Shown here: positions 3,628-22,400 of the stretch, in pieces
How the letters are laid out: every line of letters starts with the position of its first letter
Position numbering within the stretch: the first letter of the stretch is position 1
DNA from: an uncultured delta proteobacterium
Lineage (GTDB): Bacteria; Desulfobacterota; Binatia; UBA9968
Assembly (NCBI GenBank): GCA_963771465.1
Contig: CAVYTU010000018.1
Coordinates: 64,001 to 128,000, forward strand
Length of the DNA: 64,000 nt
Direction of reading: 5' to 3'
Translations under genes and position numbers: made by a program
Notes under the pieces: generated by a model
What the model was told of the DNA's origin: nothing
Database searches by the model: none
What the model saw: the letters and a program-made list of their open reading frames with translations, nothing else

Positions 3628-4083
3628 ATGCTAGACGGCGCTCTTAGGCCTGTTGAAGTCCTACTGGTCGAGGACAATCCCGGCGACGTGCGGCTGACCG
3701 AGGAGGCTTTGAAGGAGGGTAAACTCGTCGTTCACTTGACCGTCGCCCGCGACGGTCTTGAGGCTACTGATATTCTCCACCAGCGCAATGGCCACGCGAA
3801 TGCCAAGCGGCCGGATCTGATCCTGCTCGATCTCAATTTGCCCAAAATCGACGGCCGGCAGGTTCTGCAAGAAATTAAGAATGATCCCAAGCTGTTGCGT
3901 ATCCCGGTGGTGGTTCTCACCACCTCCGAAGCCGACTCGGATATTTTGACGACCTACGGCTCCCATGCCAACTGCTACATCACCAAGCCGGTCGACATGG
4001 ATCGTTTCGTCGACATCGTAAAACTCCTAGAGGAGTTCTGGTTCACCATCGTCAAGCTGCCGTCACACGGAACCGCCTTGTAA
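3628..4083 (+). CDS. Single-domain response regulator, Rcp1-like
   Basis: LLVEDNPGD, PDLILLDLNLPKIDG, VVLTTS, ANCYITKPVD, and the FW C-terminal motif of the Rcp1 type. Confidence 0.92.
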   Translation: MLDGALRPVEVLLVEDNPGDVRLTEEALKEGKLVVHLTVARDGLEATDILHQRNGHANAKRPDLILLDLNLPKIDGRQVLQEIKNDPKLLRIPVVVLTTSEADSDILTTYGSHANCYITKPVDMDRFVDIVKLLEEFWFTIVKLPSHGTAL

Positions 4084-6509: not shown

Positions 6510-6512
6510 ACA

Positions 6513-8258
6513 ATGCCAGTGAGCCAACCTATCCTGTTGGTCGAGGACAATTCCGGCGACGCGATGTTGCTCAAGGAGGCGTTGCGCGACTTCAATCATA
6601 GGCCGCCCTTCGAGTTGATCCACGTCGATCGGCTGGCGACGGCAATCGAACGCATGAAACAGGAAAGGTTCGACGCGGTTCTATTGGATCTGTCCCTGCC
6701 CGATGCCAAAGGTGTTGAAACGGTAGTGCGCATGCAACGTGATGCCGGAACCTTGCCGATCATCGTGCTCACCGGATTGGACGACGATGCGGCGGCGATG
6801 GAAGCGGTGCGCGCCGGCGCCCAAGATTATCTCGTCAAAGGCCAAATCGACGGCCGTCTGCTCGTGCGCGCCTTGCGCTATGCAATCGAAAGAAAGCGGC
6901 TGCAAGAGGCCATGCGGCTTCACTTGGAGCGCATCACGGCGCTCAAAGATGTCAATGTCGCGCTCACCGCGAACTTGAATCTACCCTCAGTTCTGGAAGT
7001 TCTCTGCGAAACGGTTGGCCGCTTGCTACCCGACTTCGGTATGACGGTGCGTTTGTGGAACCGCGAGCAAGGGCTCTTGGAATCGGCCGCGACGGTAAAC
7101 TACGACGATAGTTGGTGGCAGTCGATGATAACGCAACCCGAACGTAAGGCCACGCTCAGCGAGACCGTATTCGCCTCAAAGCAACCTTTAGTCATCTCGG
7201 ATGTCGCCAACGAACCGCGGCTGCAATATCAAGAATTTTGGCGCCGCACGGGTTTTTCGGGATATCTCGGTATTCCTCTGATCGCGAACGACGAAACTCT
7301 TGGCGTGGTTTCGTTTTTTCCCAAGCAAGGGACCATACTCACTAGCCAAGAAATCGAGTTTCTCAGCGCCTTGGCAAGCCAAGCGTCGGTGGCGATCCGC
7401 AACTCCCAAACCCACGGCGAGATGAAGCGATTGGCCGGCGACTTGGAGCGATCCAATCACGTCAAAGAGGAATTTCTCGGCGTCATCTCCCACGAGCTGC
7501 GCACGCCGCTAAACGTCGTTAGAGGATATGTCGAAATCCTCCAGACCGGCATGTTCGGTGCAATGAATTCAGAGCAGTTGGAAGCGGTGGAAAAAATCGC
7601 CAATCAAACGAGAATCCAGCTGGCGATGATCAATTCGATCTTGAACGCGACGACCATGGAGTCGGAAGTTGCTTCGGTACAGACCGAGGTGTTCTCATTG
7701 GGCGATTTTCTGGAAGACTTCAGAGTCGCATTTCCAGATCCGGCGGACGGCCACCTATACTTTGAGTGGTGTTACTCGCCGAGCCTGCCGGAGATCCGCA
7801 GTGATCGGACCAAGCTCCAATATATTCTGCAAAATCTTATTAACAACGCGGTTAAATATACGCCCCGCGGGATGGTGGCGGTGAGCGCTGAAGTGCGCAT
7901 GGGTGCGCCGTTGGTGCCGGACCCGGAGAATGCAAACTCGCGCAAGTGCTGGCTGAGTTTGCGCGTCGGCGATACCGGGGTCGGCATCGCCGAGGAATTT
8001 CTGCCGGTGATTTTTGAAAAATTCAGCCAGGTCGACAGTTCGACAACCCGAGCCCATGAAGGCATCGGACTCGGTTTGCATATCGTCAAACGGTGCACGG
8101 AACTGCTCAACGGCACGGTGAAAGTCGAAAGCGAACTGGGCAAGGGAACGACATTTTTCGTGACGATTCCCTGCGAGCACGACGCCGACGGGAGCCGCCG
8201 CGGAAGCGCTGCCGGCGCCGCGGCTGTGCGCCATCTGCGGCAGAGCGATACGCTATGA
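6513..8258 (+). CDS. Hybrid kinase REC-GAF-HisKA-HATPase
   Basis: N-terminal REC (LLVEDN, LLDLSLPD, DYLVKG), GAF (YLGIPLIANDETLGVV), SHELRTPL, NNAVKYT, DTGVGI, GIGLGL. Confidence 0.92.
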   Translation: MPVSQPILLVEDNSGDAMLLKEALRDFNHRPPFELIHVDRLATAIERMKQERFDAVLLDLSLPDAKGVETVVRMQRDAGTLPIIVLTGLDDDAAAMEAVRAGAQDYLVKGQIDGRLLVRALRYAIERKRLQEAMRLHLERITALKDVNVALTANLNLPSVLEVLCETVGRLLPDFGMTVRLWNREQGLLESAATVNYDDSWWQSMITQPERKATLSETVFASKQPLVISDVANEPRLQYQEFWRRTGFSGYLGIPLIANDETLGVVSFFPKQGTILTSQEIEFLSALASQASVAIRNSQTHGEMKRLAGDLERSNHVKEEFLGVISHELRTPLNVVRGYVEILQTGMFGAMNSEQLEAVEKIANQTRIQLAMINSILNATTMESEVASVQTEVFSLGDFLEDFRVAFPDPADGHLYFEWCYSPSLPEIRSDRTKLQYILQNLINNAVKYTPRGMVAVSAEVRMGAPLVPDPENANSRKCWLSLRVGDTGVGIAEEFLPVIFEKFSQVDSSTTRAHEGIGLGLHIVKRCTELLNGTVKVESELGKGTTFFVTIPCEHDADGSRRGSAAGAAAVRHLRQSDTL

Positions 8259-8317
8259 ACGGGCTGAAGGGCGCTATTTAACGTCGGGTCGTTGGCGCGA
8301 GCCGACTTTCTAATCGC

Positions 8318-10510
8318 ATGGCCAAAATGCACGCTTCATTGATCGAACCGAACGCCGATACGGTTGGCGACCCGGTTAAAGTTCTCCTCATCGAGGACAA
8401 TACCGGCGACGCACGTTTGGTTTTGGAACTACTTAAAGATGCCGGCGGCGCGCTCTTTGAAGTTACCGATGCCGGTTCGCTTAAGGTTGGGATTGGCCAT
8501 CTCAAGGCAGCAAATTACGATGTCGTCCTGTTGGACCTCTCGCTGCCGGATGGCGTTGGCGTCGAAACCGTGGTTCGTCTCCTAGCCGAAGCGCCAGCGG
8601 TGCCGATCGTTGTCCTGACGGGGCTGGACGACGACCGATCCGCCGTCGATGCGGTGCGCAGCGGCGCGCAGGATTATCTCGTCAAAGGCAAATTCGACGG
8701 TCCGATGCTGGCGCGCGTGTTGCGCTACGCCATCGAACGCACGCGCGCCCAGCAGGCGCAAGCGCGCTACCAAGACCAGACGGCGCTGACCACGATTGCA
8801 ACGGCGGCTAGCCAGTCGCTTCAGCTTGAGGAGATGCTCGAGGTCGCGGTGGCAAAGGTGTTGGAAGTTACCGGATGTGAAATGGCGCATATTCGGCTGC
8901 GTAATCAGAAGACTGGGGAAATATCTTTGGCTGCCCACCGAGGGCTTACACCCGAGCGCGTTGATGCGCTACTCCAGCAGCAGCGGCCGTCGGCAGAACG
9001 CGATGAGATTTTCCGCACGGGAGAAGTCGTCATCCAACGCGAACCGGTGGTTAGGGCGCTTGAAAGCCAATCGGCCCAGATTACCGGTCGGGTCAGGGTG
9101 TGGATTCCTCTAAAGGCGAAAGGGAATGTTGTCGGTATCCTGACTATTGAAACGCTGCGCCGAGAAAAGTTTTCGCGCCGCGAAGTGGAGCTTTTAAAGG
9201 CCATCGGCAACGTCATCGGCGTCGGTGTCGAAAATGCCCGGCTGTTCACTGAGACGCGCCGCCAACTGGAACGCATCCAGGCGCTGCGTGATATCAGTGT
9301 AGCCACCGCTTCGAGCCTCAATCTGTCGCGCGTGCTAAAGATTTTGCTCGAAAAAATCGCCGTCGTCTTGCCGTATTCGGCGTTGGCCGTTCGATTGTTC
9401 GACAAAGCGAGCGGCGAATTGCGGCCCACCGTAGCATGGAATCTCGATCAGGAAGAATGGCAAGAGTCAGCCGGCAAAAACAGCGGCAGTGGGCTCTCGG
9501 CCGTTGTCTTCGAGAAAAAGAGTCCCTTGGCGATTCGCCAATTCTTGCACGATCCGCGCACTCGAAAGCCGGAGCTGTTCCGCCGTCAAGGCTTGGTTTC
9601 CTATTTGGGATTGCCGATGATCGCTAACGGCGAATGCGTCGGCGTGTTGTCGATCTCCACCAAATTCGAACATGAATTTCCCGAAGAGGAGATTCGTTTT
9701 CTTTCCGCGCTGGCCAACCAGGCCGGTATGGCGATCTATAATTCCCAGCTCTATGAGCATATTCAGGGGCAAGCGGCCGAGCTCGAACGGAGCAACAAGG
9801 TCAAAGACGAATTCCTCAGTGTCATGTCGCATGAATTTAGAACTCCGATTAACGTAATCCTGGGTTATTGCGAGCTGATCAAGAAACGAGTCTTGGGAGA
9901 AATCAATGCGGAGCAGGAAAACGCGGTGGCGAAGATCACAGATCGTTCTAAGGATCTCTTGGGATTGCTCTCGGCAATTTTAGAAGTGACTCGAATCGAG
10001 ACTAAGGACATGCGGGTGCTGGCGGAAACGTTCGACCTCAATGAATTCTTCGCTGAGTTCAAAACGAACCATGATCTACAGTTGGCCAAGGATGTGAGTC
10101 TTGAGTGGTGTGGCCCGGAGCAAGCAGTCGCGGTTAACACGGATCCGAGAAAGCTGCGGATCATTCTTGAGCAACTTTTCGCCAACGCCGTGCAGTTTAC
10201 GGAAAGCGGCAAGATCAGCGTCGCAGCAAATCGCAGCGCCGACGCCAAGCATTTTTATTTATCGGTGACCGATACCGGGATCGGCATTCCCGCAGAGTCG
10301 CGCGACGTCATTTTTGAAAAATTTACTCAGCTCGATGGCTCGTCGACCCGCGCGGTCGGTGGTATCGGCCTCGGTCTTTATCTGGTCAGAAATTTTGTCG
10401 CTATATTAGGCGGCGAGCTGCGGGTCGATAGCGGGGTTGGCGTCGGTTCCTCTTTCGCAGTGACGCTGCCAATCGACATCGAGTCGTCGCCCGTCTTGGT
10501 GGAACGCTAA
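8318..10510 (+). CDS. Hybrid kinase REC-GAF-GAF-HisKA-HATPase
   Basis: REC paralogous to the upstream gene, two GAF domains, SHEFRTPI, ANAVQFT, DTGIGI, GIGLGL. Confidence 0.92.
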   Translation: MAKMHASLIEPNADTVGDPVKVLLIEDNTGDARLVLELLKDAGGALFEVTDAGSLKVGIGHLKAANYDVVLLDLSLPDGVGVETVVRLLAEAPAVPIVVLTGLDDDRSAVDAVRSGAQDYLVKGKFDGPMLARVLRYAIERTRAQQAQARYQDQTALTTIATAASQSLQLEEMLEVAVAKVLEVTGCEMAHIRLRNQKTGEISLAAHRGLTPERVDALLQQQRPSAERDEIFRTGEVVIQREPVVRALESQSAQITGRVRVWIPLKAKGNVVGILTIETLRREKFSRREVELLKAIGNVIGVGVENARLFTETRRQLERIQALRDISVATASSLNLSRVLKILLEKIAVVLPYSALAVRLFDKASGELRPTVAWNLDQEEWQESAGKNSGSGLSAVVFEKKSPLAIRQFLHDPRTRKPELFRRQGLVSYLGLPMIANGECVGVLSISTKFEHEFPEEEIRFLSALANQAGMAIYNSQLYEHIQGQAAELERSNKVKDEFLSVMSHEFRTPINVILGYCELIKKRVLGEINAEQENAVAKITDRSKDLLGLLSAILEVTRIETKDMRVLAETFDLNEFFAEFKTNHDLQLAKDVSLEWCGPEQAVAVNTDPRKLRIILEQLFANAVQFTESGKISVAANRSADAKHFYLSVTDTGIGIPAESRDVIFEKFTQLDGSSTRAVGGIGLGLYLVRNFVAILGGELRVDSGVGVGSSFAVTLPIDIESSPVLVER

Positions 10511-10714
10511 AGTCGGCGATCGCGGCGCTGGAATGATTCTATAATTCGCTGCCCGTAGTTGCCGACGGCTGTCAATTCGCTTCCAATGAAGCAATATCTC
10601 GCCATCACCAAGGCACGACTGACACGAAATTTCAGATTGCGGATTTACACCGCCGCATGCTCCGACAAGACTTGATCGTGAATAGCTTCCGCGCTTCTAG
10701 ATAAGCTTTCGCAC

Positions 10715-10744
10715 TTGACCGAGTCATCCCGTCAACTCTATAGT
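10715..10744 (+). promoter_or_regulatory. Putative sigma70 promoter of the FIST gene
   Basis: TTGACC (10715-10720), 18-nt spacer, TATAGT (10739-10744), 9 nt before ATG 10754. Confidence 0.45.
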
Positions 10745-10753
10745 TGCCTCATT

Positions 10754-11941
10754 ATGATTCGAGCTGGAGTGGGGCAGTCGAGCGACGTTTCGACCGCGCG
10801 GGCAGCGGCGGCGGCGATTGAGCAGGCGTTTGCGCAAGCGGGCACTCGACATGCGGACGCAGCGCTGGTCTTTTTTAGCGCCGAACATGGCGCGCCCGCA
10901 AGCGAATTGCCCGAAACCATTCGTCGGTTGGCTGGAACGGATCAAATTGCCGGCTGCAGCGCTGCCGGTGTGCTCACGGCGAACGGAGAAGTGGAAGGCG
11001 AACGCGGGCTTGCCGTGATGGTGTTGTCGTCGGATCAGCTTGAGTGTCGGCCATTGATGTTTAAGCCGCTGCGTGAACACGATGGCATTATTGGCGCCGA
11101 ACTCGCGGCGATCGCGGCGCCGACGGAAGCCTCGGGTTCGCTCCTGGCGCTGTTTCCTGATACTTACAACGGCCAGCCGCAGCGGCTGTTAGAAAGCCTT
11201 CATGACGAACGCGGATTTAGTCCCGTGGTCGGCGCCGGCGCGTCGGAAAATGGCACGGCGCAGGCGACCTATCAGCTGAGCAGCACAGGCGTGACCAGCA
11301 ACGCCGTGGCGGGCATGTATTTTAACGGCTCGTTTCAAACTCACATCGAAATTACCCAGGGTTGCCAGCCGATCACCGACTCGATGGTGATCACCAAAGC
11401 GGAACGAAATCTTATCTATGAGATCAACGAGCGGCCCGCGCTGGAAGTGTTTGCCGGCTTGCTCAAGGGGCCGCTCGCCGACGATCTGCGCCGCGCGCTG
11501 ATGGTCTTGTTCGTCGGCTTGCCGGCGGACCGCTTGATCAATAGCGTGGCGCCGGGCAAATATTTGATTCGCAACATCATCGGTATCGATCCCGACAAAG
11601 GCATACTCGGCGTCGCCGAAGCCGTGACCGAAGGCGAGTCGATTATTTTTGCCATGCGCGACGGCCAGCGCGCGCGCGACGACTTAAATCAAATGTTGCA
11701 ACGGCAGGTCAACAATCTCGGCGGGAGAAAGCCAGCCTTCGGCTTTTACTTCAATTGCTGCGCCCGCGGCAGCTCGCTCTACGGCATTCCCGGCATCGAT
11801 TCCGCTTACATCAAGCAGGCGCTCGGCGATTTTCCCTTGATCGGCATGTTCGGCGGCTATGAACTGGCGCCGCTCGGGCGCGCTAACCATTTATTCGCCT
11901 ATACCGGCGTGCTGGCGTTGATTACCGGCGAGGACGGCTGA
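10754..11941 (+). CDS. FIST N/C domain signal-transduction protein (NosP-like family)
   Basis: IAGCSAAGVL, VVGAGAS, TQGCQPI, EINERPALE, YLIRNIIGID, FNCCARG, GMFGGYEL. Start placed at ATG 10754. Confidence 0.88.
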   Translation: MIRAGVGQSSDVSTARAAAAAIEQAFAQAGTRHADAALVFFSAEHGAPASELPETIRRLAGTDQIAGCSAAGVLTANGEVEGERGLAVMVLSSDQLECRPLMFKPLREHDGIIGAELAAIAAPTEASGSLLALFPDTYNGQPQRLLESLHDERGFSPVVGAGASENGTAQATYQLSSTGVTSNAVAGMYFNGSFQTHIEITQGCQPITDSMVITKAERNLIYEINERPALEVFAGLLKGPLADDLRRALMVLFVGLPADRLINSVAPGKYLIRNIIGIDPDKGILGVAEAVTEGESIIFAMRDGQRARDDLNQMLQRQVNNLGGRKPAFGFYFNCCARGSSLYGIPGIDSAYIKQALGDFPLIGMFGGYELAPLGRANHLFAYTGVLALITGEDG

Positions 11942-12061: not shown

Positions 12062-13888
12062 TCAGCGTCCGACGCGCTTACGTTTGTTGTTGAGATAGTC
12101 GACCATTATGTAGTTGCCCATCTGGTCGGGGGTGGTGTAGAAGACCCGGCCGGTATTCATGCGTGAAAGCTGATCGACAAACCCCTGGCGGTAGTAATCG
12201 GCGCCGAGCATAAACGTGTTGATCGTGATGCCGCTCTGGGTGCAGCGCTTCACTTCCTTGAGTGTCTCGTGCACGATGCGGCCGTGCAGCATCGCCGAGC
12301 CCCAGCCACTGTGCAGACGGCCACCGCGATCAAGGGTCGCTGCGGTGGGCTCGCCGTCAGTGATCAAAATGATCTGCCGGTTGGCCGACCGATTCGTGCC
12401 CAGAAGCTGACGCGCAAAACGGAGCGCCTCCTTGATGTCGGTGCCATGCTCCATGAAATAGGTTAGCGAGACGATCGACGGCAGATCCTCGGCTTGAATG
12501 AGTTTGGCGTTGGAGCGAAAAGCGACCAGGTGCAAGGTGTCTTGCGGATATTTCGTTTGAATCAAGCGATGCAGCGCCAGGGCGACTTTCTTGCCCGCGT
12601 GGAGCGCGTCGTTCATCAACATCGAGTAGCTCACGTCAATCAACAACGCGGTTTCGGCGACCGTCGAATACTCGACCCGGTGCACGGAAAAATCTTCCGG
12701 ATGAATTCTCAGCGGCTCGCCTGGCTTGCGTCTCTCTAACGCATTGAGCACGGTCTCGCTGATATTGATGTTCATCGGGTCGCCATACTCGTAGAGTTTG
12801 GTTTCTTCCATGTGCTCGCCCTGGGCGCCGCGCGCCGACGTGTTGTGGTTCCCCCAGCGGCTTTTGTTGAGCATCTGAAAGATTTCGCGCAGCGCCTTGT
12901 CACCGATTTTGCGCATGCCTTTCGCCGTCAGCTTTAGACCGTGGCTGCCGCGCATGATGTAACCGTCGTCTTCGAGCATCTGCTCGACGTTCTGTAGATA
13001 TTTCAGATTCTCATAAGCTTCCTCGCCGAGCAGATCACGCAGCTCGTCGAGATTGAGCTCCGACGGATCGCCCATGCCGCGTTGTCCCCAACGCAAAAAC
13101 CGTTCGAGGCCGCGCATTTGGCTCAATATCTGTCCCGCTTCGCCCATGCCCATGCGTTGCGAACCTTGGAACGGGAACTGGTTCATCAGCTGTTCCAGCT
13201 GCTGCATTTGGCTCATCATCTCGCTCATCTGCTGCAGCTGCTCCTCGGTCATGTTGGCCATGTTTTCCAACATGCTTTCGAGGTTGTTGATGGCGTTGTC
13301 CATCATGCTCGGCAAATTGTTGAGAAAGTTCTCGTCTTTCAACAACTCGTTCATGCGGTCGAGCATGTCCATCAGCGACTGCGGATTCTGGCCGCCCATA
13401 TTCGATTGGCCCTGCGGCATGCCGCGCTCGTTGATCTGATTTTGCAGACGCTGCTGCAATTCTTGATAACGCTGATACGCCTCCTGCATCTTCTGATTCA
13501 TCTCGTCCATGCGGTCGGCGAACTTGCCCGACATGCGCTCCATGAAGTTGCGCATCTGTTCGTTGTAGGCTTCCATCTTCTCGGCGAGCTTGGCGAGTTT
13601 TTCGCTCAGCGCTTGCTGCTCTTCGGGTGTGAGCTTAAAAGAATCCGGGGAATATTTATTGAGCAGCTCGCGACGCTTCTCGTCGGCTTGGCGCAGGAAA
13701 TCGCGCATGCCTTTGACCGAACGCTGGCCGTCCTCTGAAGTGAAACCACGGCGCATCAGATCGCGCAGCGCGCGCCGGACGCCTTCTTCCTCGAGCAGGT
13801 GGTCAGAGAGCTGGTTGAGAATATCGTTGGTCGTCGGGAATAGAACCTGCTGCGTGCCGTCCCAATCGGTATAGCGATGAATTCTCAT
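12062..13888 (-). CDS. vWA domain protein with long helical N-terminal region
   Basis: HRYTDWDGTQ N-terminus, LTAKGMRKIGDKAL, complete MIDAS (DVSYS, GTD, ITDGEP). Confidence 0.88.
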   Translation of the reverse strand: MRIHRYTDWDGTQQVLFPTTNDILNQLSDHLLEEEGVRRALRDLMRRGFTSEDGQRSVKGMRDFLRQADEKRRELLNKYSPDSFKLTPEEQQALSEKLAKLAEKMEAYNEQMRNFMERMSGKFADRMDEMNQKMQEAYQRYQELQQRLQNQINERGMPQGQSNMGGQNPQSLMDMLDRMNELLKDENFLNNLPSMMDNAINNLESMLENMANMTEEQLQQMSEMMSQMQQLEQLMNQFPFQGSQRMGMGEAGQILSQMRGLERFLRWGQRGMGDPSELNLDELRDLLGEEAYENLKYLQNVEQMLEDDGYIMRGSHGLKLTAKGMRKIGDKALREIFQMLNKSRWGNHNTSARGAQGEHMEETKLYEYGDPMNINISETVLNALERRKPGEPLRIHPEDFSVHRVEYSTVAETALLIDVSYSMLMNDALHAGKKVALALHRLIQTKYPQDTLHLVAFRSNAKLIQAEDLPSIVSLTYFMEHGTDIKEALRFARQLLGTNRSANRQIILITDGEPTAATLDRGGRLHSGWGSAMLHGRIVHETLKEVKRCTQSGITINTFMLGADYYRQGFVDQLSRMNTGRVFYTTPDQMGNYIMVDYLNNKRKRVGR

Positions 13889-13897
13889 TTGTCACCG

Positions 13898-13925
13898 ACT
13901 ATAGCGCAGTTTGGGATTCTGTCAA
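13898..13925 (-). promoter_or_regulatory. Putative sigma70 promoter of the vWA gene
   Basis: Minus strand TTGACA, 16-nt spacer, TATAGT, ending 9 nt before the ATG at 13888. Confidence 0.55.
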
Positions 13926-14025
13926 AGCCCAAGTGGCGTATTGGCGCCGCCGCTTTGGCGTCCTTCTTGCGCCCTTTGGAATTGCTCGCAACTTCATATA
14001 AATAATGACTCAATATTGGAGCACA

Positions 14026-15135
14026 ATGAAGGACTTTGACTATGTCATCATCGGCGCGGGATTTGCGGGGGCGGCGACCGCTTATCATTTGGCGCGTGCC
14101 GGCGTGAGCCGGATCTTGCTCGTGGAACAAGAGAGCATCCCAGGGTTTCATTCGTCGGGACGTAACGCGGCGATGCTGCGCCAATGCGTATCCGAGCCGG
14201 ATCTCACCGACCTGGCGCGTGCCGGCGCGGCGTTTATTCATCATCAACCGACCGATTGGCCGGAGCCAGTGTCATTCAAACAAAATGGCTCGCTGCTCCT
14301 CGCCAGCGACGCCGGCTGGGACAAGCTCCAGCGCGATGCCGAGATTGGCCGGCAATCCGGTATCGGCGGTATCGAGCTGTGGACCCCCGACCAGGCAAAA
14401 CGCCATGTGCCGCTGCTCAAGCAGGCCGAGTTCGACGGGGCGTTGTGGTGCAGCACGGACGGTATCGTCGACATCCACGCGCTGCTTTCGGGTTATTTAA
14501 AATACGCCGCCGGCAAGGGTGCTGAGATTCGTTACAATTGCGCGGTTCAAGCGGTGAACCATAATGGCGGTGATATCGAGATATCGACGAATACCGGCGT
14601 CGCCAAAGCCAAGGTGTTGGTCAACGCCAGCGGCGCCTGGGCCAATGTTGTGGCGAGATTGGCCGGCGCCACCGAGTTGCCGCTCAAACCTTGCCGGCGC
14701 CATTTGTTTGTCTCGCCGCCGCTCGATTGGGTCGATCGCTCCTGGCCGTTTGTCTGGGACGTCTCGCACGATATTTATTTTCGTCCGGAAGGCGATGGTT
14801 TGTTGCTCTGCGCCTGCGATCAGACTGAGTTGGCTCCCGGCGATCCGCCGGTGGACGAAAGCGTCAGGGAAATGCTGGCGGAAAAGATCGACCGTTACAT
14901 GCCGGCGCTGGGCGATGTCAGTATCGCCAAAGGTTGGGCCGGTATTCGCACGCTGACACCGGATGGCCGTTTCGTCATCGGCTGGGACCCGCAGGTGGAT
15001 AATTTCTTTTGGGTGGCTGGACTTGGCGGTCATGGGATGACCACCAGCGCGGCGGTGGGCGAGCTGGCGGCGCAGTTGCTGATCGGTGGGCGCGGAAAAA
15101 AATCGGCGCCGTTTGCGCCGGAGAGATTCGCCTGA
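14026..15135 (+). CDS. FAD-dependent oxidoreductase (DAO/glycine oxidase/sarcosine oxidase beta family)
   Basis: IIGAGFAGAATA, SSGRNAA, VNASGAWA, WAGIRTLTPDGRFVIG, GLGGHGMT. Confidence 0.9.
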   Translation: MKDFDYVIIGAGFAGAATAYHLARAGVSRILLVEQESIPGFHSSGRNAAMLRQCVSEPDLTDLARAGAAFIHHQPTDWPEPVSFKQNGSLLLASDAGWDKLQRDAEIGRQSGIGGIELWTPDQAKRHVPLLKQAEFDGALWCSTDGIVDIHALLSGYLKYAAGKGAEIRYNCAVQAVNHNGGDIEISTNTGVAKAKVLVNASGAWANVVARLAGATELPLKPCRRHLFVSPPLDWVDRSWPFVWDVSHDIYFRPEGDGLLLCACDQTELAPGDPPVDESVREMLAEKIDRYMPALGDVSIAKGWAGIRTLTPDGRFVIGWDPQVDNFFWVAGLGGHGMTTSAAVGELAAQLLIGGRGKKSAPFAPERFA

Positions 15136-15148
15136 GGATGGAGTCAAG

Positions 15149-15532
15149 ATGCGTTGGAGTATTGGAGTAATGGAGCGTCGGACTAATGGCAAGATCAAAA
15201 TAGCCGCCGCGATGATTGCGTTGGCGGGTTGGTTCATGGCGCATGGCATTTGCCAAGCGGCGCAACCGGCCAAAGTGAGAATCTCTTATTCGAGCCGGAG
15301 CAACTCGATCACGCCGTTTCAGATCGCCCTCAACAAAGGCTTTTTCGCCGAGGAAGGTTGGGACGTGGAGATGATTCAGGTCAATCCACGGTTCGGCGCC
15401 ATTTCGCTCAGCCGCAACGGCGAGATCACCGATCATGAATGGGATATGCTGACGGAAAAAAGGAAGCCGGTGGACGAGGTGCGCGACTTCACGCTGCTGC
15501 GGGACGTGCAAAAAGAATTGAAACTACGTTAG
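15149..15532 (+). pseudogene. Internally deleted NMT1/SsuA-type solute-binding protein
   Basis: Signal peptide and KVRISYSSRS...IALNKGFFAEEGWDVEMIQV joined in frame to the C-terminal DEVRDFTLLRDVQKELK. About 200 aa of the core is missing. Start uncertain. Confidence 0.7.
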
Positions 15533-15566
15533 TGCTGAAGCGCTGTCGCAAGCGAGGAGCAAGACC

Positions 15567-16340
15567 ATGAATATCGAGCGCGGCAAGAAATATTCGCCGC
15601 AAGAAGCCAAGGCGATCGTCGACGGACTTTATGCTAATGTCCGCGAGCGCTGGGAGGAGCGGGTCAATCAACAGCCGTTCATGCAGCAGTTGATGGGGGG
15701 GAAGTTACCGCTTCGGACCTTGCAGATTTTTTTTCGCAACTGGGGCGCCTATACCATCGAGATCAACACGCTGACCGCTTGCACCTATCATCGCAACATT
15801 ACTTTTTTGAAAGTGAACCGCGACCTCATGGGACCCATCGGCGAGAAGATCGCCGACGAGTTCATCCATCCCAAGCCGCCGGGCCATTTCCTGGTGATGA
15901 TGGAAACGGCAAAAGCGTTTGGCTTGAGCGAAGATGAAGTGTTCACTTCGTCGATGCTGTCGGAGTTCCGCGGCAAGATCGATTTCATGCGCGGCATCGT
16001 TTACGAGGGTAGCGCGGCCGAGTGGTATGCGGCGGTGACGACCGAGGAGCAAATCGGCCATTGGTCGGCGGCTTGTTACAAAGCGCTGACGACACACTAC
16101 GGCTTTGACCGCGCCAAGGCGACATACTTTGCAACTCACGTCGAAGCCGACCTCGAAGAGCATGAAGCAGGAGTGATGGGTCATGCCAGCTTCAACCGCA
16201 TGGCCTTGCAACGTTTGTTGGAAACCGGCATGGCCGATGAGCGGCCCACTTATGGCTTGGAATACTGCGCCATGACTTCGGTGGATTTGCACGGTGCGAT
16301 GCTGCGCTCGGCGTTGGAAGAGGCGGAGCGAGGGAATTAA
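15567..16340 (+). CDS. Heme-oxygenase-like diiron oxidase (HDO; CADD/PqqC/TenA fold)
   Basis: PFMQQLMGGKL N-terminus, DE-x8-H (DEFIHPKPPGH), TTEE, YFATHVEAD...H. Confidence 0.8.
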   Translation: MNIERGKKYSPQEAKAIVDGLYANVRERWEERVNQQPFMQQLMGGKLPLRTLQIFFRNWGAYTIEINTLTACTYHRNITFLKVNRDLMGPIGEKIADEFIHPKPPGHFLVMMETAKAFGLSEDEVFTSSMLSEFRGKIDFMRGIVYEGSAAEWYAAVTTEEQIGHWSAACYKALTTHYGFDRAKATYFATHVEADLEEHEAGVMGHASFNRMALQRLLETGMADERPTYGLEYCAMTSVDLHGAMLRSALEEAERGN

Positions 16341-16345
16341 GAGAT

Positions 16346-16433
16346 TAACCACAAGGTTCGGACACGGAAATTTAACCGCAAAGCTTGTCCTGAGCAAATG
16401 TGAAGGAACTGGCATCGCGCAAAGAACGCAAAG
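16346..16433. repeat. Degenerate intergenic repeat (AACCACAAGG/AACCGCAAAG, GCGCAAAGAACGCAAAG) with a REP-like CTTGTCCTGAGC...GAAGGA insert
   Basis: Short direct repeats between the HDO stop and the DapA RBS. Confidence 0.45.
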
Positions 16434-16455
16434 CGAAAAAACTTCGGAGGTTTCC

Positions 16456-17382
16456 ATGATGGAACAAGTTAGAGGCGTGGTGCTGCCGAGTCCGACGGTG
16501 TTTCGCGAGGATGGCAGTGTCGATGAGACGTTGATGCGCGAGCTGACCGACTGGTTTGTCGCTTGCGGCGTGCATGCATTCTTTGTTCTCGGTTCTTACG
16601 GTCAGGGGCCGGCGCTCCATCCGGCGGAACGCAAGAAGGTTGCCGAAATTATCGTCCAGCAAGTGAAGCATCGGGTGCCTGTGGTCGTGCACATCGGCGC
16701 GGTGGATCCGTTTACGGCGATCGAACTCGGCAAACATGCCCAATCGATCGGCGCCGAAGCGGTCGGCCATGTCGGGCCTTATTACTACGCCGACCGTTCG
16801 GAGTATGAAATTATCGAGCATTTGAAGATGGTCGACCGCGCCCTCGGCATGCCGATGCTGATTTATAACAACCCGCGTTATTCCGGTTACAACATTCATC
16901 CGTCGTTCATGGCGAAATTGATCGAAGCGGTGCCGAATATTTTCGGCGCCAAGCTCGCCATGGGCAGTGTCGACGAAGCGATGGCTTATATGAAATTCGT
17001 CAAGGCGCCGTTCGCCCCTTACGCGCTGGCGAGCAATCTGGTCTCGGCCATGTCGGTGGGCGTCGCCGGCACGATCAGCCCGCCGCTGGCGGTGACGCCG
17101 GAGATCGGTGTCGCACTAGTTCGCGCCATCGATGCCGGCGACGCGGCGCGTGCATTGGCGCTGCAAAAAGACGTGATTCGTATCCACGATATATTTCTCC
17201 GTCTCGCCGGCCCGTTCGGCCGGACGATTTACTGTGAAGCGATGCGGCTGCGCGGCTTTGACGTGAAAATGTATCCGCGCTGGCCGTCCAAGCCGCTCAG
17301 CCGGGAAGCATATGATGAGCTGCACGATTTATTCACCGAGTTAAAAATTATCGGCACCCCGGCGCAGGCAAAGAGCGCGTGA
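16456..17382 (+). CDS. Dihydrodipicolinate synthase (DapA/NAL) family class I aldolase/lyase
   Basis: PTVFREDGSVD, LGSYGQ, VPVVVHIG, IYNNP (Tyr), FGAKLA (Schiff-base Lys). RBS GGAGG before 16456. Confidence 0.88.
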   Translation: MMEQVRGVVLPSPTVFREDGSVDETLMRELTDWFVACGVHAFFVLGSYGQGPALHPAERKKVAEIIVQQVKHRVPVVVHIGAVDPFTAIELGKHAQSIGAEAVGHVGPYYYADRSEYEIIEHLKMVDRALGMPMLIYNNPRYSGYNIHPSFMAKLIEAVPNIFGAKLAMGSVDEAMAYMKFVKAPFAPYALASNLVSAMSVGVAGTISPPLAVTPEIGVALVRAIDAGDAARALALQKDVIRIHDIFLRLAGPFGRTIYCEAMRLRGFDVKMYPRWPSKPLSREAYDELHDLFTELKIIGTPAQAKSA

Positions 17383-17401
17383 TGCCAGAATTCGAAAAAC
17401 G

Positions 17402-18337
17402 ATGAAACAGTTGGTTTTTCTTACTCTGCTGCTGTTGAATCTCGCCACCGCCGACGCCGCACTTGCGCAAGAGCGCGTTCGCATGGCGTTGTCCGTGCGC
17501 AACGTGGTTTTCCTGCCGTTCTATTACGCGCGCGATCTCAAGATCTTCGACAGGCACGGCATGAATGTCGAGCTGATCCAGATGCGCAGCGACTTGCAGA
17601 TGGCCGGCTTGGTGTCGGGCGAGATCGATTACACGCCGGCAATCGGACCGGCGACTTATCCGGTGGCCAATGGCGCGCCGATCAAGGGCGTGGCGGTGCT
17701 TTACAAAGCGCCGCTGTTTTCTCTGGTGAGTTCGCCGAGCATTACCACTGCTAGGGAACTCGAAGGCAAGAAGGTTGCCGTGTCGCGCATTGGATCGGAT
17801 AGCCATCGCTTCGGTTCGCAGATGCTCGAACTCGGCGGCGCCGACCCCAAGAAGGTTACGTTCATTCAGACCGGCAACACCACCGTGAGTCTGACTTCGT
17901 TGCAACAAGGCGTGGTCAACGGCGCGGTGCTCAGTCCGCCGTTCACCGGCATCGTCGCCGAAAAGGGCTACCGAGTCCTGGTGCGCAGCCGGCAACTGAT
18001 CGATTCGCCTTGGCTGGGTTTAGTCGCGAACAAACATAAATTGGAAAAGCAGCCGGAGCAGGCACGCAACATGTTGCGCTCGATGCGCGATGTCATCGCC
18101 GCGATCCGGCGTGATAAACCGGCAGTGGTGAATTACATCGTCAAGAATTTCAATGTCAGCGTGGCCAACGCCACCGAGTCTTACGACGATATCGCCGGCG
18201 TGATCATCGATACGATGAGTATGCGCGATGAGCAGATGCAAAAGTATCTCGACGGCTTCCACCAACGCGGCGAGTTGCCCAAGCCGGTGAGCGCCAGCGA
18301 GATGTTCGACTTTTCGCTGCTGCGCAGCTTGAAATGA
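17402..18337 (+). CDS. NMT1/SsuA-type ABC solute-binding protein
   Basis: Signal peptide, IFDRHGMNVELI, LEGKKVAVSRIGS, EMFDFSLL C-terminus. Confidence 0.88.
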   Translation: MKQLVFLTLLLLNLATADAALAQERVRMALSVRNVVFLPFYYARDLKIFDRHGMNVELIQMRSDLQMAGLVSGEIDYTPAIGPATYPVANGAPIKGVAVLYKAPLFSLVSSPSITTARELEGKKVAVSRIGSDSHRFGSQMLELGGADPKKVTFIQTGNTTVSLTSLQQGVVNGAVLSPPFTGIVAEKGYRVLVRSRQLIDSPWLGLVANKHKLEKQPEQARNMLRSMRDVIAAIRRDKPAVVNYIVKNFNVSVANATESYDDIAGVIIDTMSMRDEQMQKYLDGFHQRGELPKPVSASEMFDFSLLRSLK

Positions 18338-18391
18338 CCTCGACTCGGGCCACGCATTCTGAGATCGACACCAGTCAAGGAACCAGCACCA

Positions 18392-19861
18392 ATGGCCATC
18401 ACCACGCATGAACATGGCGGCCACGGCGATCACGGCCATGATCACGAAGGCGCGGTCGGGCCGCACACGCATCTGACCAGCGTCGGCATCGACATCGGTT
18501 CGTCGACCTCGCACCTGATGTTCTCTCAGCTGCTGATCGGCTATCCCTCGGTGCTGCAACGAAAGCCGATGGTGCTCGAACGCAACGTGATCGCGCGCTC
18601 GCCGATTCTACTGACGCCGTTTTCCGGTGATTGGAACATCGAAGCCGGACCGCTCATGCGATTGGTCGATGCGACGTTTGACGAAGCGGGCTTGACGCGG
18701 GCCGATATCGATACCGGCGCGGTGATTATCACCGGCGAGGCGGCGCGGCGCGATAACGCGGCGAAGATCGCCCAGCTGTTTGCCGACGAGAGCGGGAAAT
18801 TTGTCTGCGCCACGGCCGGGCCGACGTTGGAAACGATCATGGCGGCCCATGGTTCGGGCGCAGTGCAGCAGAGCCGCGAGCTGGGATTGACGTTGCTCAA
18901 TATCGACGTGGGCGGCGGCACGACCAAGATTAGCTTGATCCAGGAAGGCAAAATTCGCGGCACCACGGCGGTCAACATCGGCGCGCGCTTAGTGGCGTAT
19001 AACGGCGCTGGGGAAATGATCCGCTTGGAAAAAGGCGGGCGGCGCTTTCTCGCCGCACTCGGAGAGCATCTCGACTTTGGCGCCAAGGTGTCGCCAGCAT
19101 TGCGCGAAGCGCTCGCGAGCCGCATGGCTCATGCGCTGTTCCATGCGCTGACGACGGGGAAGCCGCCTTGGGATGATTTTTTCGTTTCTCCCAGACTGGC
19201 AACGTTGCCGAAGATCGACGGCATTCTTTTTTCCGGCGGCGTGTCGGAATATATTTACGCGCGCGAGCGCGATTCATTCGGCGATCTCGGGCCCTATCTT
19301 GGCCGGCAAATCAGACGCGAAGCGGAGCAGCGCGGCTTTACGATTCTCGAAGCGGGCGAAGGTATTCGAGCCACCGTGATCGGGGCGTCGCAATACACCG
19401 TACAGTTGAGCGGCGAAACCATCTTCGTGCCGCATAATTTACGACTGCCGGTGCGCAATCTCCGCGTCTTTGTGGTTCACGCGAGCTGGGAAGAGCCGGT
19501 GGCCGAGCGAGTCGAGCAGGCGGTGATGCAGATTCTCGGCGAGCGCGATCCTGAAGTGCGCGGCGCGCCATTTGCGCTGGCGTTTTCAACCCCGCCGTTC
19601 GTCGGTTACGGCGCAGTGCAAAACATGGCTCAGGGCATCGACCGCGCCTTTGCGCGCCTTGACCATGATGACCGGCCGGCGGCGTTGGTTTTTGGCCAAA
19701 ACGTCGGCCAAGTGGTCGGTGGCATGCTTTCGGCGAAATGGAGCATGCCTTGTATAGACGAGGTGATACTGTCGGAGTTGGACTTCATCGATATCGGCGA
19801 GGTGGTTCCGGAAGAAGGCTTTGTGCCGGTGGTGATCAAGAGTTTGGCGTTTGGAGTATGA
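18392..19861 (+). CDS. eutA: EutA-like ASKHA ATPase (reactivase family) with His-rich N-terminus
   Basis: SVGIDIGSSTSHLMFS, SPILLTP, TGAVIITGEAARRDNA, FVCATAGP, NIDVGGGTTK, FSGGVSE, IRATVIGASQYT, DFIDIG, VPVVIKSL. Confidence 0.88.
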   Translation: MAITTHEHGGHGDHGHDHEGAVGPHTHLTSVGIDIGSSTSHLMFSQLLIGYPSVLQRKPMVLERNVIARSPILLTPFSGDWNIEAGPLMRLVDATFDEAGLTRADIDTGAVIITGEAARRDNAAKIAQLFADESGKFVCATAGPTLETIMAAHGSGAVQQSRELGLTLLNIDVGGGTTKISLIQEGKIRGTTAVNIGARLVAYNGAGEMIRLEKGGRRFLAALGEHLDFGAKVSPALREALASRMAHALFHALTTGKPPWDDFFVSPRLATLPKIDGILFSGGVSEYIYARERDSFGDLGPYLGRQIRREAEQRGFTILEAGEGIRATVIGASQYTVQLSGETIFVPHNLRLPVRNLRVFVVHASWEEPVAERVEQAVMQILGERDPEVRGAPFALAFSTPPFVGYGAVQNMAQGIDRAFARLDHDDRPAALVFGQNVGQVVGGMLSAKWSMPCIDEVILSELDFIDIGEVVPEEGFVPVVIKSLAFGV

Positions 19862-19877
19862 CCGAGAAGGAGGACCT

Positions 19878-20585
19878 ATGGATTTAGTCAAAGATCTTTG
19901 TGCGACGTTGGATAAGATGGTGAACGATCAGTTCGAGAGCGTCGAGTTCAAGAACTTTCTCGCCGTGCCGCTCACCATGGAACGCGGCCGTTTTTATGTC
20001 GTGCAGAACGCGCTTTATACGAGCAACCGGCGTGACTGTTGGGGCTATGTTCAAGGCGGCGCGCCGTTGGAGGTGAAGCGGGTCATTTGGGCGCACGAAA
20101 GCGACGAATTGATCAATGATCCGCGCGCCGGGATGGATCATTACGCATTGACGGTGAAGCAGGGCGAAGTGATTGGACTCAAGCCCGAAGATTTCGAGAA
20201 AGCTGAAGTTCCAGCCATGGTGCAGGCATGCTTCCACGCGTGGCATCACATCGCCATGCGCAATCATTGGCTGTCGGCCTATACGGCGTCGCATATGCTC
20301 GAGCGGCGTAACAACGGCAAGATCGTCAAAGGCGGCGGCATGTCGTACCGGGTCGGTAAAAAATTTGAGAACGAGCTCGGCATTAACTTAAAGCGCATGA
20401 TCTCGCTGGACGTGCACGTCGTCGCCGACATGGACCATTCGGAGAATATTTCCGAGATGTTCGAGCGCTATGTCAAAACGCCCGAAGACTGCGAGCGGGT
20501 ACTTCTCGGCGCGCGCGATTCGATGGCCATCGACCGCGCCTACCGCGGCGCGCTGGGCTATTATATGGAGCAGATATCGGGTTGA
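19878..20585 (+). CDS. Second heme-oxygenase-like diiron oxidase (CADD/PqqC/TenA fold)
   Basis: DE-x10-H, MLE, HVVADMDH (H-x3-D-x2-H). RBS AGGAGG; starts 16 nt after the EutA-like stop. Confidence 0.8.
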   Translation: MDLVKDLCATLDKMVNDQFESVEFKNFLAVPLTMERGRFYVVQNALYTSNRRDCWGYVQGGAPLEVKRVIWAHESDELINDPRAGMDHYALTVKQGEVIGLKPEDFEKAEVPAMVQACFHAWHHIAMRNHWLSAYTASHMLERRNNGKIVKGGGMSYRVGKKFENELGINLKRMISLDVHVVADMDHSENISEMFERYVKTPEDCERVLLGARDSMAIDRAYRGALGYYMEQISG

Positions 20586-20803
20586 CCAAGGTGATTGCAC
20601 TGCGGCAGCATTAATTGGGTTTCCAAAGGAGCGAGCACCCCTTTGCGATAGTTTAATCAGCGGCGGGGTTAAAACCGCGCCGTGGTCCTTCGTCCCGCGG
20701 AATTAACTTGTCGAGTCGCCCACCCTGGATCGGATTACTGCTCGACTAATCGGCGCTCATTATGCTATAAAGCGGAAACTCGAAAATTTTCTACTATCGG
20801 CGA

Positions 20804-21190
20804 ATGACCCGGCGAAAACCTTCAAAACAAGCAAATTTGCCTGCGGAAGCGGGCATGACGCTGTTAGAATTACTCGTCGTCGTAGCGGTGGTAGGGATTC
20901 TCGCCTCGATCGCGATTCAACAGGTTTCACTTTATCGGGCGCGGGCGTTCGATGCTTCGATGCGCTCCGATCTCAAGAACGCGGCGCTAGCGATGGAAAG
21001 TTACTACGGAGAATTCCTCGAATATCCGAACACGCAAGCCGCGATCCTGTTAGTCGGCTACCGAAATACCAGCGGCGTTTCGCTGACCATCAACGTCACT
21101 TCTCCATCAACCTTTACTCTGACAGCAGCGCGCCCGAACGGCAGCCAGTTGAGTTTTACCTACGACAGTACGACAGGTCTGATTAACTGA
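20804..21190 (+). CDS. Type IV pilin (prepilin G|MTLLE)
   Basis: AG|MTLLELLVVVAVVGILASIAI, SDLKNA...ESYY...YP. 111-aa mature protein without Cys. Confidence 0.88.
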   Translation: MTRRKPSKQANLPAEAGMTLLELLVVVAVVGILASIAIQQVSLYRARAFDASMRSDLKNAALAMESYYGEFLEYPNTQAAILLVGYRNTSGVSLTINVTSPSTFTLTAARPNGSQLSFTYDSTTGLIN

Positions 21191-21209
21191 ATACGCGCCT
21201 TTCGCTTCG

Positions 21210-21632
21210 ATGATAATCGAAATCGCTTCGCCCGTCCCGGCGAATTCACTGAATCTAACTTCTCGCCGTTGGCGGCGGACAATCGCGGCTCGCGGTTACT
21301 CACTTATCGAGCTGCTGGTTGTGATCGCGATTATCTCGATTCTAGCTGCGGTGGCGGTGCCGCAGTTTATTGCTTATAAGGCGAGATCAATGGACGCTGT
21401 AATGCATTCGGATTTAAAGAATGCGGCCCTTGCCGCGGAATCATACTATGCCCTTTACCATTATTATCCCTCTTCCGTTGCTGTGCTGACCGCTTCGGGG
21501 TACGTGTCCAGTCCTGGGGTTGGAGTGACGATTACTATACTAACACCAACCTCATACACGGTTACCGCGTTGGCTTCTGGCGGCACCCAACCAAGTTTTA
21601 CTCTGGATAGTGTGACCGGAGTGATCAATTAG
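21210..21632 (+). CDS. Type IV pilin (prepilin G|YSLIE), Geobacter PilA-like N-terminus
   Basis: RG|YSLIELLVVIAIISILAAVAVPQFIAYK...SDLKNA...ESYY...YYP. 111-aa mature protein. Confidence 0.88.
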   Translation: MIIEIASPVPANSLNLTSRRWRRTIAARGYSLIELLVVIAIISILAAVAVPQFIAYKARSMDAVMHSDLKNAALAAESYYALYHYYPSSVAVLTASGYVSSPGVGVTITILTPTSYTVTALASGGTQPSFTLDSVTGVIN

Positions 21633-21668
21633 TGTGTAAGTCTGTTCCGTCTGCGCGCTGGCGCGTCC

Positions 21669-22400
21669 CTACTTCGCCGTGCGTAGAAAGTAAGTCTGAC
21701 CGGTGACGTATTTCGCCGCGTCGGAGAGCAGGTAACGGACCAGGCCGACGATCTCGAACTTGTGCGTGAGGCCGTCCATTAGCGGTGGGATTTCTTCCCG
21801 TTTCTTGAATTGATCCGGCGTGAAACCGATGCGCGACATCGGCGTATCGGTGGCGCCGGGGCAAACACAGTTGACCGTGATGTTGTTCGGTGCCAACTCC
21901 ATGGCGAGCGATTTCGTGAAGGCGATGACGCCGGCTTTTGACGCCGCGTAGTGCGCCGAGCGCGCCTGGCCGACAACGCCGCGGCCCGAGGCGATACTGA
22001 GAATTCTCCCTTCGTTGCGTGGCAGCATGTGCTTGGCCGCGGCTTGAGCGCAGAGAAACACGCCTTTCAAATTGATGCGCATCAAACGATCCCACATTTC
22101 CTCCGGCATCTCGACGACCGCCATGCGGTCCATCACGCCCGCGCCGCAAAAAACATAATCGACATGAGCATACTTGGCGACTGCATGGTCCATCATTGCC
22201 GCGACACTTTTGGGATCGCCGACATCGACTTGTACAGCGATGGCGCTGCCTTTATTGGTGTTGATCTCCGCGGCAACTTTTTCCGCGGCGTCCTTGGCGA
22301 AATCCGCAACCACCACGTTCAATCCGTCGGCGGCCATGCCGCGGCAGATTTCCGAGCCGATGCCGCCGGCGCCGCCGGTGACGAGAATCGTTTTGCTCAT
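21669..22400 (-). CDS. Short-chain dehydrogenase/reductase (FabG-like)
   Basis: TGGAGGIG, INLKG, YAASK, VNCVCPG. Start at ATG 22400. Confidence 0.92.
   Translation of the reverse strand: MSKTILVTGGAGGIGSEICRGMAADGLNVVVADFAKDAAEKVAAEINTNKGSAIAVQVDVGDPKSVAAMMDHAVAKYAHVDYVFCGAGVMDRMAVVEMPEEMWDRLMRINLKGVFLCAQAAAKHMLPRNEGRILSIASGRGVVGQARSAHYAASKAGVIAFTKSLAMELAPNNITVNCVCPGATDTPMSRIGFTPDQFKKREEIPPLMDGLTHKFEIVGLVRYLLSDAAKYVTGQTYFLRTAK

Follow-up and report, generated by a model that had tools for sequence, protein, structure and literature searches.

The operon and its genes

A small operon is described here from a 64,000-nucleotide stretch of DNA of an uncultured delta proteobacterium of the Binatia (contig CAVYTU010000018.1, positions 64,001 to 128,000; this whole stretch is called the window below), in which the gene of an EutA-family ATPase directly precedes the gene of a candidate haem-oxygenase-like dimetal oxidase (HDO). 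The ATPase gene (18392..19861, + strand; PF06277, 3.4e-110) encodes a protein of the predicted ASKHA type with a histidine-rich N-terminal tail (residues 1-28, ~18392-18475). The oxidase gene, HDO2 (19878..20585, + strand; PF14518, 3.6e-11), encodes a candidate CADD-like 3-His/3-carboxylate enzyme and is the constant neighbour of the ATPase. Between the two lies a spacer of 16 nt (19862..19877, +) in which a ribosome-binding site, GAAGGAGG, can be read. Upstream stand, in this order, a remnant of a periplasmic binding protein, a second candidate oxidase (HDO1), a DapA-like enzyme and another periplasmic binding protein, so that six open reading frames (ORFs) follow one another on the + strand with gaps of 34, 115, 19, 54 and 16 nt. 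This co-directional run had been recognised in a first-pass annotation made from the sequence alone, and its coordinates and spacers agree with ours.

Scanning of positions 13700-21800 gave no promoter over the shuffled expectation and no terminator that convincingly marks an operon boundary. Contigs of four RNA-labelled soil libraries, near-identical to the window, cover parts of all operon genes, and one of them crosses the spacer between the ATPase and HDO2 (19835-20248). These contigs are a weak hint of the expression of the operon; they cannot prove a single transcript, the libraries may include DNA, and the stretches left uncovered are uninformative.

An orphan branch of the EutA family

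The ATPase matches PF06277 over its full length (residues 27-487 on profile positions 2-474 of 475). It stands apart from canonical EutA, as was suspected when the gene was first called an orphan: the four NCBIfam EutA equivalogs (NF007991-NF007994) score it at 193-293 bits against cut-offs of 598-952, and a tree of 89 sequences places ~4 changes per site between E. coli EutA and the 88 orphan EutA-like forms. The nucleotide-binding residues D34/G36/T39, D172/G174-176/T177/K179 and G282/G283/E286 are invariant in 113 sequences, which makes it likely that the protein is an active ATPase. The phosphate-1, phosphate-2 and adenosine motifs are combined with a two-lobed predicted fold, as in the ASKHA superfamily. 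The model of the protein (pLDDT 86.7, residues 1-18 disordered) finds its best Foldseek matches in HgdC, Ppx/GppA, MreB, PilM and DnaK, which points to an ASKHA-type core, and it has residues without a counterpart in these best matches. A search of the PDB by sequence gave no solved EutA structure. An HgdC-like iron-sulfur activator was also considered for the ATPase and set aside as unlikely for the lack of an invariant cysteine, none being found among the 113 sequences.

The His-rich N-terminal tail noticed in the first reading is real, and the orthologs keep 7-9 His ahead of the first ATPase motif. Tails in this position are mostly His/Asp/Glu-rich across the orphan EutA-like proteins. At least three His were counted in 44 and at least five in 16 of the 72 proteins scored (16 of the 88 ORFs fell outside the simple motif pattern and were excluded), the clade of the window being the richest. 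Many orphan proteins start with Met-His-Asp or Met-His-Glu, starts reminiscent of the N-terminal Ni-binding MHE motif of HypA, while the window clade starts with MAITTHEH. No internal branch of the EutA-like tree is longer than the stem of the window clade (1.64). Eleven replacements at otherwise conserved positions are specific to this clade, seven of them within residues 49-96, and the clade is nested among others whose members adjoin a bicupin gene.

The first-pass annotation had found neither eutBC nor a microcompartment shell nor any other B12 enzyme in the 64 kb, and this absence extends to the whole genome (6.9 Mb, 99.36% complete), in which searches found no EutB, EutC, methylmalonyl-CoA mutase or BMC shell. 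The search of the genome for diol dehydratase was negative as well, but weakly so, as its model was silent in every control genome. The same genome holds five full-length EutA-family genes with ~40% mutual identity. Across a class sample of 151 genomes, EutA-family genes occur in 19, all belonging to three families of the order of the window and carrying 3-9 copies each; none of the 41 genomes sampled from that order gave a EutB. On this genomic record the EutA-like protein is not a reactivase of a B12 enzyme. It is instead a member of an extensive orphan branch of that family, made up of ASKHA-type ATPases with His/Asp/Glu-rich tails that stand beside non-B12 metalloenzymes, in most cases a bicupin of ~390 aa.

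The candidate dimetal oxidases

Both HDO1 and HDO2 retain the 3-His/3-carboxylate residues of the CADD type that had been read from their translations. HDO1 (15567..16340, +; PF03070 and PF14518) aligns to the CADD structures 1rcw and 8va9, and its H107, helix-3 Glu, H191 and D195 fall on residues that we take to be H88, E142, H174 and D178 of CADD (1rcw). HDO1 residues E98, H107, H191, D195 and H199 are conserved in 13/13 orthologs. Similarly, E77, H88, E142, H180, D184 and H187 of HDO2 are invariant among 119 sequences of HDO2 and of its relative HDO2', a protein 42% identical to HDO2 that is encoded in many orthologous operons. The AlphaFold model of HDO2 (pLDDT 90.3) is matched best in Foldseek by CtCADD 8va9, 8vag and 1rcw (TM 0.74-0.83), followed by BesC, PqqC, HamA, PolF, UndA and HrmI; with TM values up to 0.83 it shows the seven-helix haem-oxygenase-like fold. 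Both proteins are hence regarded as candidate HDOs, for which the binding of two metals and the activation of O2 are predicted. The CADD model TIGR04305 scores HDO1 at 30 bits against a cut-off of 200 and does not match HDO2, and the identity of a CADD-type p-aminobenzoate synthase was set aside for both on these scores.

A total of 605 homologues of HDO2 were found, the top 120 being at least 85% identical, and they are abundant in soil metagenomes. The genome has 26 PF14518 matches, 22 of them above the cut-off, an unusual expansion of dimetal-oxidase candidates. A third PF14518 gene lies in the window at 36131-36796 on the - strand, and six more are clustered on another contig, C19 (164.8-187.1 kb).

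Conservation of the operon

Orthologous operons were found in other genomes (L019-L024, mostly Candidatus Binatia, with EutA-like proteins 71-83% identical to that of the window) and in metagenomes. Their gene order runs from the FAD oxidase through an optional binding protein, HDO1, the DapA-like enzyme, one or more binding proteins and a cytoplasmic NMT1/phosphonate-binding-like protein to the EutA-like ATPase, HDO2', HDO2, a bicupin and a pilin, after which an SDR gene follows on the opposite strand. Compared with this order, the operon of the window has lost three genes, those of the cytoplasmic NMT1-like protein, HDO2' and the bicupin. It represents an intermediate form with a twin in locus L099, and still smaller forms exist, namely FAD oxidase, ATPase and HDO2 alone (L024 and L117) or with HDO1 between the first two (L112). 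What the window carries is, by comparison of gene content, a reduced version of an operon that is kept in a single family of Candidatus Binatia. In one ortholog (L020:2309-4822) the cytoplasmic NMT1-like and EutA-like genes are joined in a single ORF of 837 aa, owing to a one-base difference from L021 just ahead of the stop codon; this may be a genuine fusion or a mistake of the assembly.

From the side of HDO2, 80 metagenome loci were collected in which this protein is 84-100% identical. An EutA-like gene lies upstream of HDO2 in 62 of the 63 loci that could be evaluated, and HDO2' is present in 66/77. Seven genomes of the order encode an EutA-like protein at least 75% identical to that of the window; in six of them HDO2 follows within 2 kb downstream, and the contig of the seventh ends just after HDO2'. 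Its recurrence in other genomes and metagenomes puts this arrangement far beyond chance.

Gene loss within this lineage is informative. The DNA tree of HDO2 requires at least three losses of the bicupin, and the state of HDO2' needs at least seven changes, whether gains or losses. The ATPase is present in 9/9 cupin-less or remnant loci whose upstream side can be judged, and for eight ATPase genes from such loci the pairwise dN/dS is 0.07-0.16 at dS 0.5-2.7. The ATPase is therefore under purifying selection where other genes of the operon were lost. This is the new element of the locus: a lineage in which the ATPase is tied to CADD-like dimetal oxidases and has stayed tied to them after the loss of the bicupin.

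Beyond the lineage the coupling is not general. Any HDO is found in only six of 79 genome loci with EutA-like genes, namely the orthologs named above; the HDO profile, built from the paralogues of the genome itself, may overlook highly divergent TenA/PqqC-like proteins in the vicinity of the other EutA-like genes. The linkage of EutA and HDO genes that the window suggested is accordingly upheld for this lineage and not for the EutA family as a whole.

A survey of 41 genomes of the order (HDO2-like proteins at E <= 1e-60, the window EutA clade at E <= 1e-130) detected the former in 26 and the latter in 15. A more distant subclade of EutA-like proteins, 59-63% identical, is represented in six genomes, and HDO genes occur in 5/6 of its loci; all five have an HDO1-like gene downstream of the ATPase and 3/5 have an HDO2-like gene as well. 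The sixth locus of this subclade, and two copies of 52-55% identity in another family, have neither a bicupin nor an HDO.

Bicupins as the family-wide partner

The first-pass annotation linked the orphan EutA-like ATPase of the window to HDOs; across the family the place of partner is taken by bicupins. Out of at least 573 EutA-like relatives, 80 were retained, and the 79 loci from other genomes together with the five copies of the genome itself gave 88 EutA-like ORFs. Of these, 47 have a bicupin at a distance of at most 400 bp and 7 more have one within 3 kb. Likewise, three of the four other EutA-family paralogues of the genome are directly preceded by a bicupin of ~390 aa. One ATPase may be accompanied by several bicupins in tandem, for example three in L075 and four in L079. 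The bicupin is without a close relative among characterised proteins; it gave only weak matches to models of 5-aminosalicylate and gentisate 1,2-dioxygenases, and no close relative was found in the PDB. No description of orphan EutA forms, of the EutA-like/bicupin pair, of the EutA-HDO link or of a chaperone for haem-oxygenase-like diiron proteins was found in the literature, subscription journals not being covered; the papers that did come up appear to concern the canonical eut operon, ectoine 'Eut' genes or RNA regulation in Listeria.

Other clades have other neighbours. One follows the ATP synthase operon. In a Rhodospirillaceae clade (L042, L044 and L052, ~6400-10600) the order is UbiD, EutA-like ATPase, a NicO-type Ni/Co transporter and a cupin of 124 aa, which hints at nickel or cobalt handling in this clade. 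Yet another stands alone, without a bicupin, beside DUF4175 and TPR genes. In this last clade (L016:8626-10227, the copy on contig C12 of the genome itself and 11 related loci) the EutA-like gene is divergent from the DUF4175 and TPR-peptidase genes, TPR, ferredoxin-like and oxaloacetate-decarboxylase-alpha-like genes lie downstream, and the tail contains a conserved stretch, DE(N/D)HPMWRSERI.

The operon of the window contains no cupin, and the genome contains no ortholog of the operon-type bicupin, the best match being 45% identical. At least nine further bicupin paralogues, 34-45% identical to the operon type, are present in the genome, most of them not next to an EutA-like gene. The genome also has many paralogues of the cytoplasmic NMT1-like protein, most of which do not adjoin an EutA-like gene.

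Accessory and flanking genes

The operon begins with a FAD-dependent amine or amino-acid oxidase of the DAO family (14005..15135, +; PF01266, 1.5e-77). Its best NCBIfam matches are N-methyl-Trp oxidase, the beta subunit of sarcosine oxidase and ThiO, all far under the cut-offs, and the genome has a single copy. The surmise that this upstream gene may belong to the system proved justified, since it is conserved as the first gene in the orthologous loci, the minimal forms L024 and L117 included.

The binding-protein remnant (15149..15532, +; PF09084, weak, 1e-3) aligns only to the N-terminal (~66 aa) and C-terminal (~42 aa) parts of a full-length NMT1-type periplasmic binding protein of locus L022. 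The two matched segments, 3103-3300 and 3877-4002, are separated there by 576 bp, and since just the two ends are matched the remnant is explained by an in-frame internal deletion. The other binding protein, of the NMT1/SsuA type (17402..18337, +; PF09084, 1e-16), has a signal peptide and matches TIGR01728 under the cut-off. No permease or ATPase gene for it is found among the ORFs of the operon.

The DapA-like gene (16456..17382, +; PF00701, 1.7e-48) encodes a class I aldolase-type enzyme of the DHDPS/NAL family. It falls under the cut-offs of the DapA, HpaI-like, KDG aldolase and NanA models; with 113 bits against a cut-off of 206 for the DapA equivalog TIGR00674, it can be named only as a member of the DHDPS family. 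The gene is missing from L024, L112, L116, L117, L141 and L164. HDO1 is likewise lacking in certain orthologous loci, L024 and L117 among them, and the binding protein is absent from the minimal loci. These three genes are therefore dispensable accessories, and the scheme of the first-pass annotation, in which the binding protein captures a substrate and the aldolase cleaves the product, does not describe the conserved core.

Upstream of the operon lie a FIST-domain protein (10715-11941, +) and a coiled-coil/VWA protein (12062-13888, -); the VWA gene forms a conserved left border in L024, L112, L117, L167 and L185. Downstream are two type IV pilin-like genes (N_methyl and ComP_DUS) at 20804-21190 and 21210-21632, both on the + strand. 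Nearly all orthologous loci have one pilin gene in synteny, placed between the bicupin and the SDR gene.

Possible function of the ATPase

The explanation that we tentatively prefer, at somewhat less than even probability, is that the EutA-like protein depends on ATP to mature or repair metalloenzymes other than those of the B12 type. Since the window has lost both the bicupin and HDO2', HDO2 is the only candidate client left in cis. As a chaperone driven by ATP, the protein would insert, exchange or restore the metal centre of its partner enzyme. On the principle of EutA, applied here to a metal centre, ATP would open the partner so that its cofactor could be exchanged or restored, and the His-rich tail may deliver or hold the metal. 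In this window HDO2 would be the client. HDO1, the aldolase-type enzyme and the binding proteins would be variable accessories of an oxidative pathway that starts with the FAD oxidase. As a guess, the gene set, comprising a FAD amine oxidase, a faintly dioxygenase-like bicupin, a DHDPS-type aldolase, NMT1-type proteins and an SDR, would suit the catabolism of an amino- or hydroxy-substituted organic acid.

A narrower form of this explanation is that the His-tailed ATPase is the first known case of a protein dedicated to assisting an HDO, recruited from an ancestral family of bicupin-servicing chaperones and loading or restoring a labile, possibly Mn/Fe, cofactor of HDO2; we consider this form doubtful. 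According to the part of a 2026 review cited here (PMC13108848), HDO clusters are labile and many are hard to reconstitute, and no protein effector is required by the HDOs examined to date, so that the idea is attractive but unprecedented. The first-pass annotation had proposed an ATPase repurposed, for example, for the diiron sites of HDOs. What endures of that proposal is that the protein is no B12 reactivase and that its adjacency to HDO2 is conserved; what has changed is the partner, which family-wide is a bicupin and not an HDO.

Several observations weigh against the ATPase as a factor for HDO2. The operon of the window lacks the adjacent bicupin that is typical of EutA-like genes throughout the family. 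A bicupin is still present in 59 of 70 evaluable orthologous loci (8 are without one and 3 have remnants), and in the single locus without an upstream EutA-like gene, L167, the bicupin is retained together with HDO2' and HDO2. Because all the ortholog loci come from close relatives and share their synteny, the counts overstate the independent support. In a sister family, homologues of HDO2 (62-67% identity) occur in 15/17 genomes, the window EutA clade in 0/17. Three sister-family loci that were inspected read HDO2', HDO2, bicupin and operon-type bicupin (77-78% identical), and no EutA gene was found within ~7 kb of these HDO2 loci. In the 59-63% subclade a divergent bicupin stands directly upstream of the EutA-like gene in 5/5 of the HDO-containing loci. 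Finally, one alphaproteobacterial EutA-like clade carries 0-1 His in the tail. The older unit looks like HDO2', HDO2 and bicupin, to which the ATPase was added in one family; the arrangement of a bicupin next to the ATPase, typical of the family, is seen in the more basal subclade. Two different tandem bicupins follow HDO2' and HDO2 at L180:8763-9821 and 9866-10936, and also in L179 and L184.

These observations could be explained if the ATPase served bicupins only, its adjacency to HDO2 being an inherited operon order (ancestrally EutA, HDO2', HDO2 and bicupin, or bicupin, EutA and further genes up to an HDO), and if in the window it acted in trans on other bicupins. We regard this, the main rival reading, as rather unlikely. 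The nesting of the clade among bicupin-adjacent clades, the bicupin of 59/70 orthologous loci and its position directly upstream of EutA in the 59-63% subclade mean that the bicupin may be the true and only client. The family-wide proximity of the bicupin (<=400 bp in 47/88), and the HDO2'-HDO2-bicupin units that lack EutA in the sister family and L167, favour it as well. The further paralogues in the genome, at least nine and most without an EutA of their own, could through action in trans account for the retention of the ATPase. Against this stand the lack of an ortholog of the operon's own bicupin in the genome, and the finding that three of the four other paralogues of the genome own an adjacent bicupin. 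Moreover, the ATPase has remained intact beside HDO2, under purifying selection, in 9/9 loci after at least three independent bicupin losses, and only 16 nt with a strong ribosome-binding site separate it from HDO2.

It is improbable, in our judgement, that the EutA-like protein is itself a catalytic ASKHA enzyme, a kinase or ATP-dependent substrate activator that feeds cupin, UbiD or HDO enzymes. In its favour, the ASKHA superfamily includes many kinases and phosphatases of small molecules, the core fold and the nucleotide motifs are intact, and the varying partners (bicupin, UbiD and HDO) each act on small organic substrates. However, the only characterised relative to our knowledge, EutA, acts on a protein-cofactor complex, and the His/Asp/Glu-rich tails and the NicO neighbour point to metal handling; the pairing of one ATPase with several tandem bicupins, as in L075 and L079, also fits a shared helper better. 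Least probable by a wide distance, and barely credible, is a genuine reactivase of an adenosylcobalamin enzyme whose client is encoded elsewhere in the genome. The full-length PF06277 match agrees with it, but EutB, EutC, methylmalonyl-CoA mutase and diol dehydratase were not found in the genome (the control for the last being silent), none of the 41 order genomes has EutB against 3-9 EutA-like genes per genome, every equivalog cut-off is missed, and the branch to E. coli EutA is very long. The canonical B12 reactivase was accordingly set aside as close to refuted.

Comparison with known systems

In an ATP-dependent reaction, EutA releases damaged cofactor from ethanolamine ammonia-lyase. The protein of the window shares with EutA of E. 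coli (b2451, PF06277) the same Pfam family over the full length, the length class, the C-terminal ending and the ATPase motifs, and plausibly also the logic of an ATP-driven restoration of the cofactor site of a partner. It differs from EutA in that neither EutBC nor another adenosylcobalamin enzyme was found in its genome (EutB in 0/41 order genomes), in that the neighbours of EutA-like genes are bicupins and HDOs, and in its tail, which in the window type is His-rich and 20-40 residues long, while only ~6 residues precede the first motif in E. coli EutA.

CADD (CT610) is a self-sacrificing Mn/Fe p-aminobenzoate synthase. HDO2 resembles CADD and other HDOs (BesC, UndA, SznF, HrmI and PolF) in its predicted fold and its invariant 3-His/3-carboxylate set, but is only 16% identical to CADD. 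HDO1 has a Cys aligned with Lys152 of CADD, a residue that we presume to have a role there.

Several NTP-dependent metallochaperones, such as HypB, UreE/UreG, CooC/CooJ and COG0523 proteins, have His-rich tails, and XylT reactivates Fe(II) ring-cleavage dioxygenases. The proposed function is similar to these in concept, in that a dedicated factor loads or restores a labile metal site, and the His-rich, putatively metal-binding tail is a further likeness. The metallochaperones are P-loop G3E GTPases and XylT is a ferredoxin, whereas the EutA-like protein is an ASKHA-type ATPase with a predicted role in metal handling. The radical-enzyme activators of the HgdC/BcrAD type are ATP-driven helpers as well and are among the best Foldseek matches (1hux and 4eht). 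They bridge a [4Fe-4S] cluster via conserved Cys, whereas the EutA-like protein has no invariant Cys and has an extra C-terminal domain.

Significance

EutA-family genes are automatically annotated as reactivases of ethanolamine ammonia-lyase. For a large branch of the family this is wrong, because the order of the window carries 3-9 such genes per genome and no such lyase. If the EutA-like proteins indeed mature or repair cupin and dimetal oxidases, they would be metallochaperones of a new class, with an ASKHA scaffold in place of the P-loop one. This would also bear on HDO cofactors, which are labile and hard to reconstitute and for which no protein helper is known, as far as the cited part of the review goes (PMC13108848). 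The system is likely to matter ecologically, because HDO2 is abundant and very conserved in soil metagenomes.

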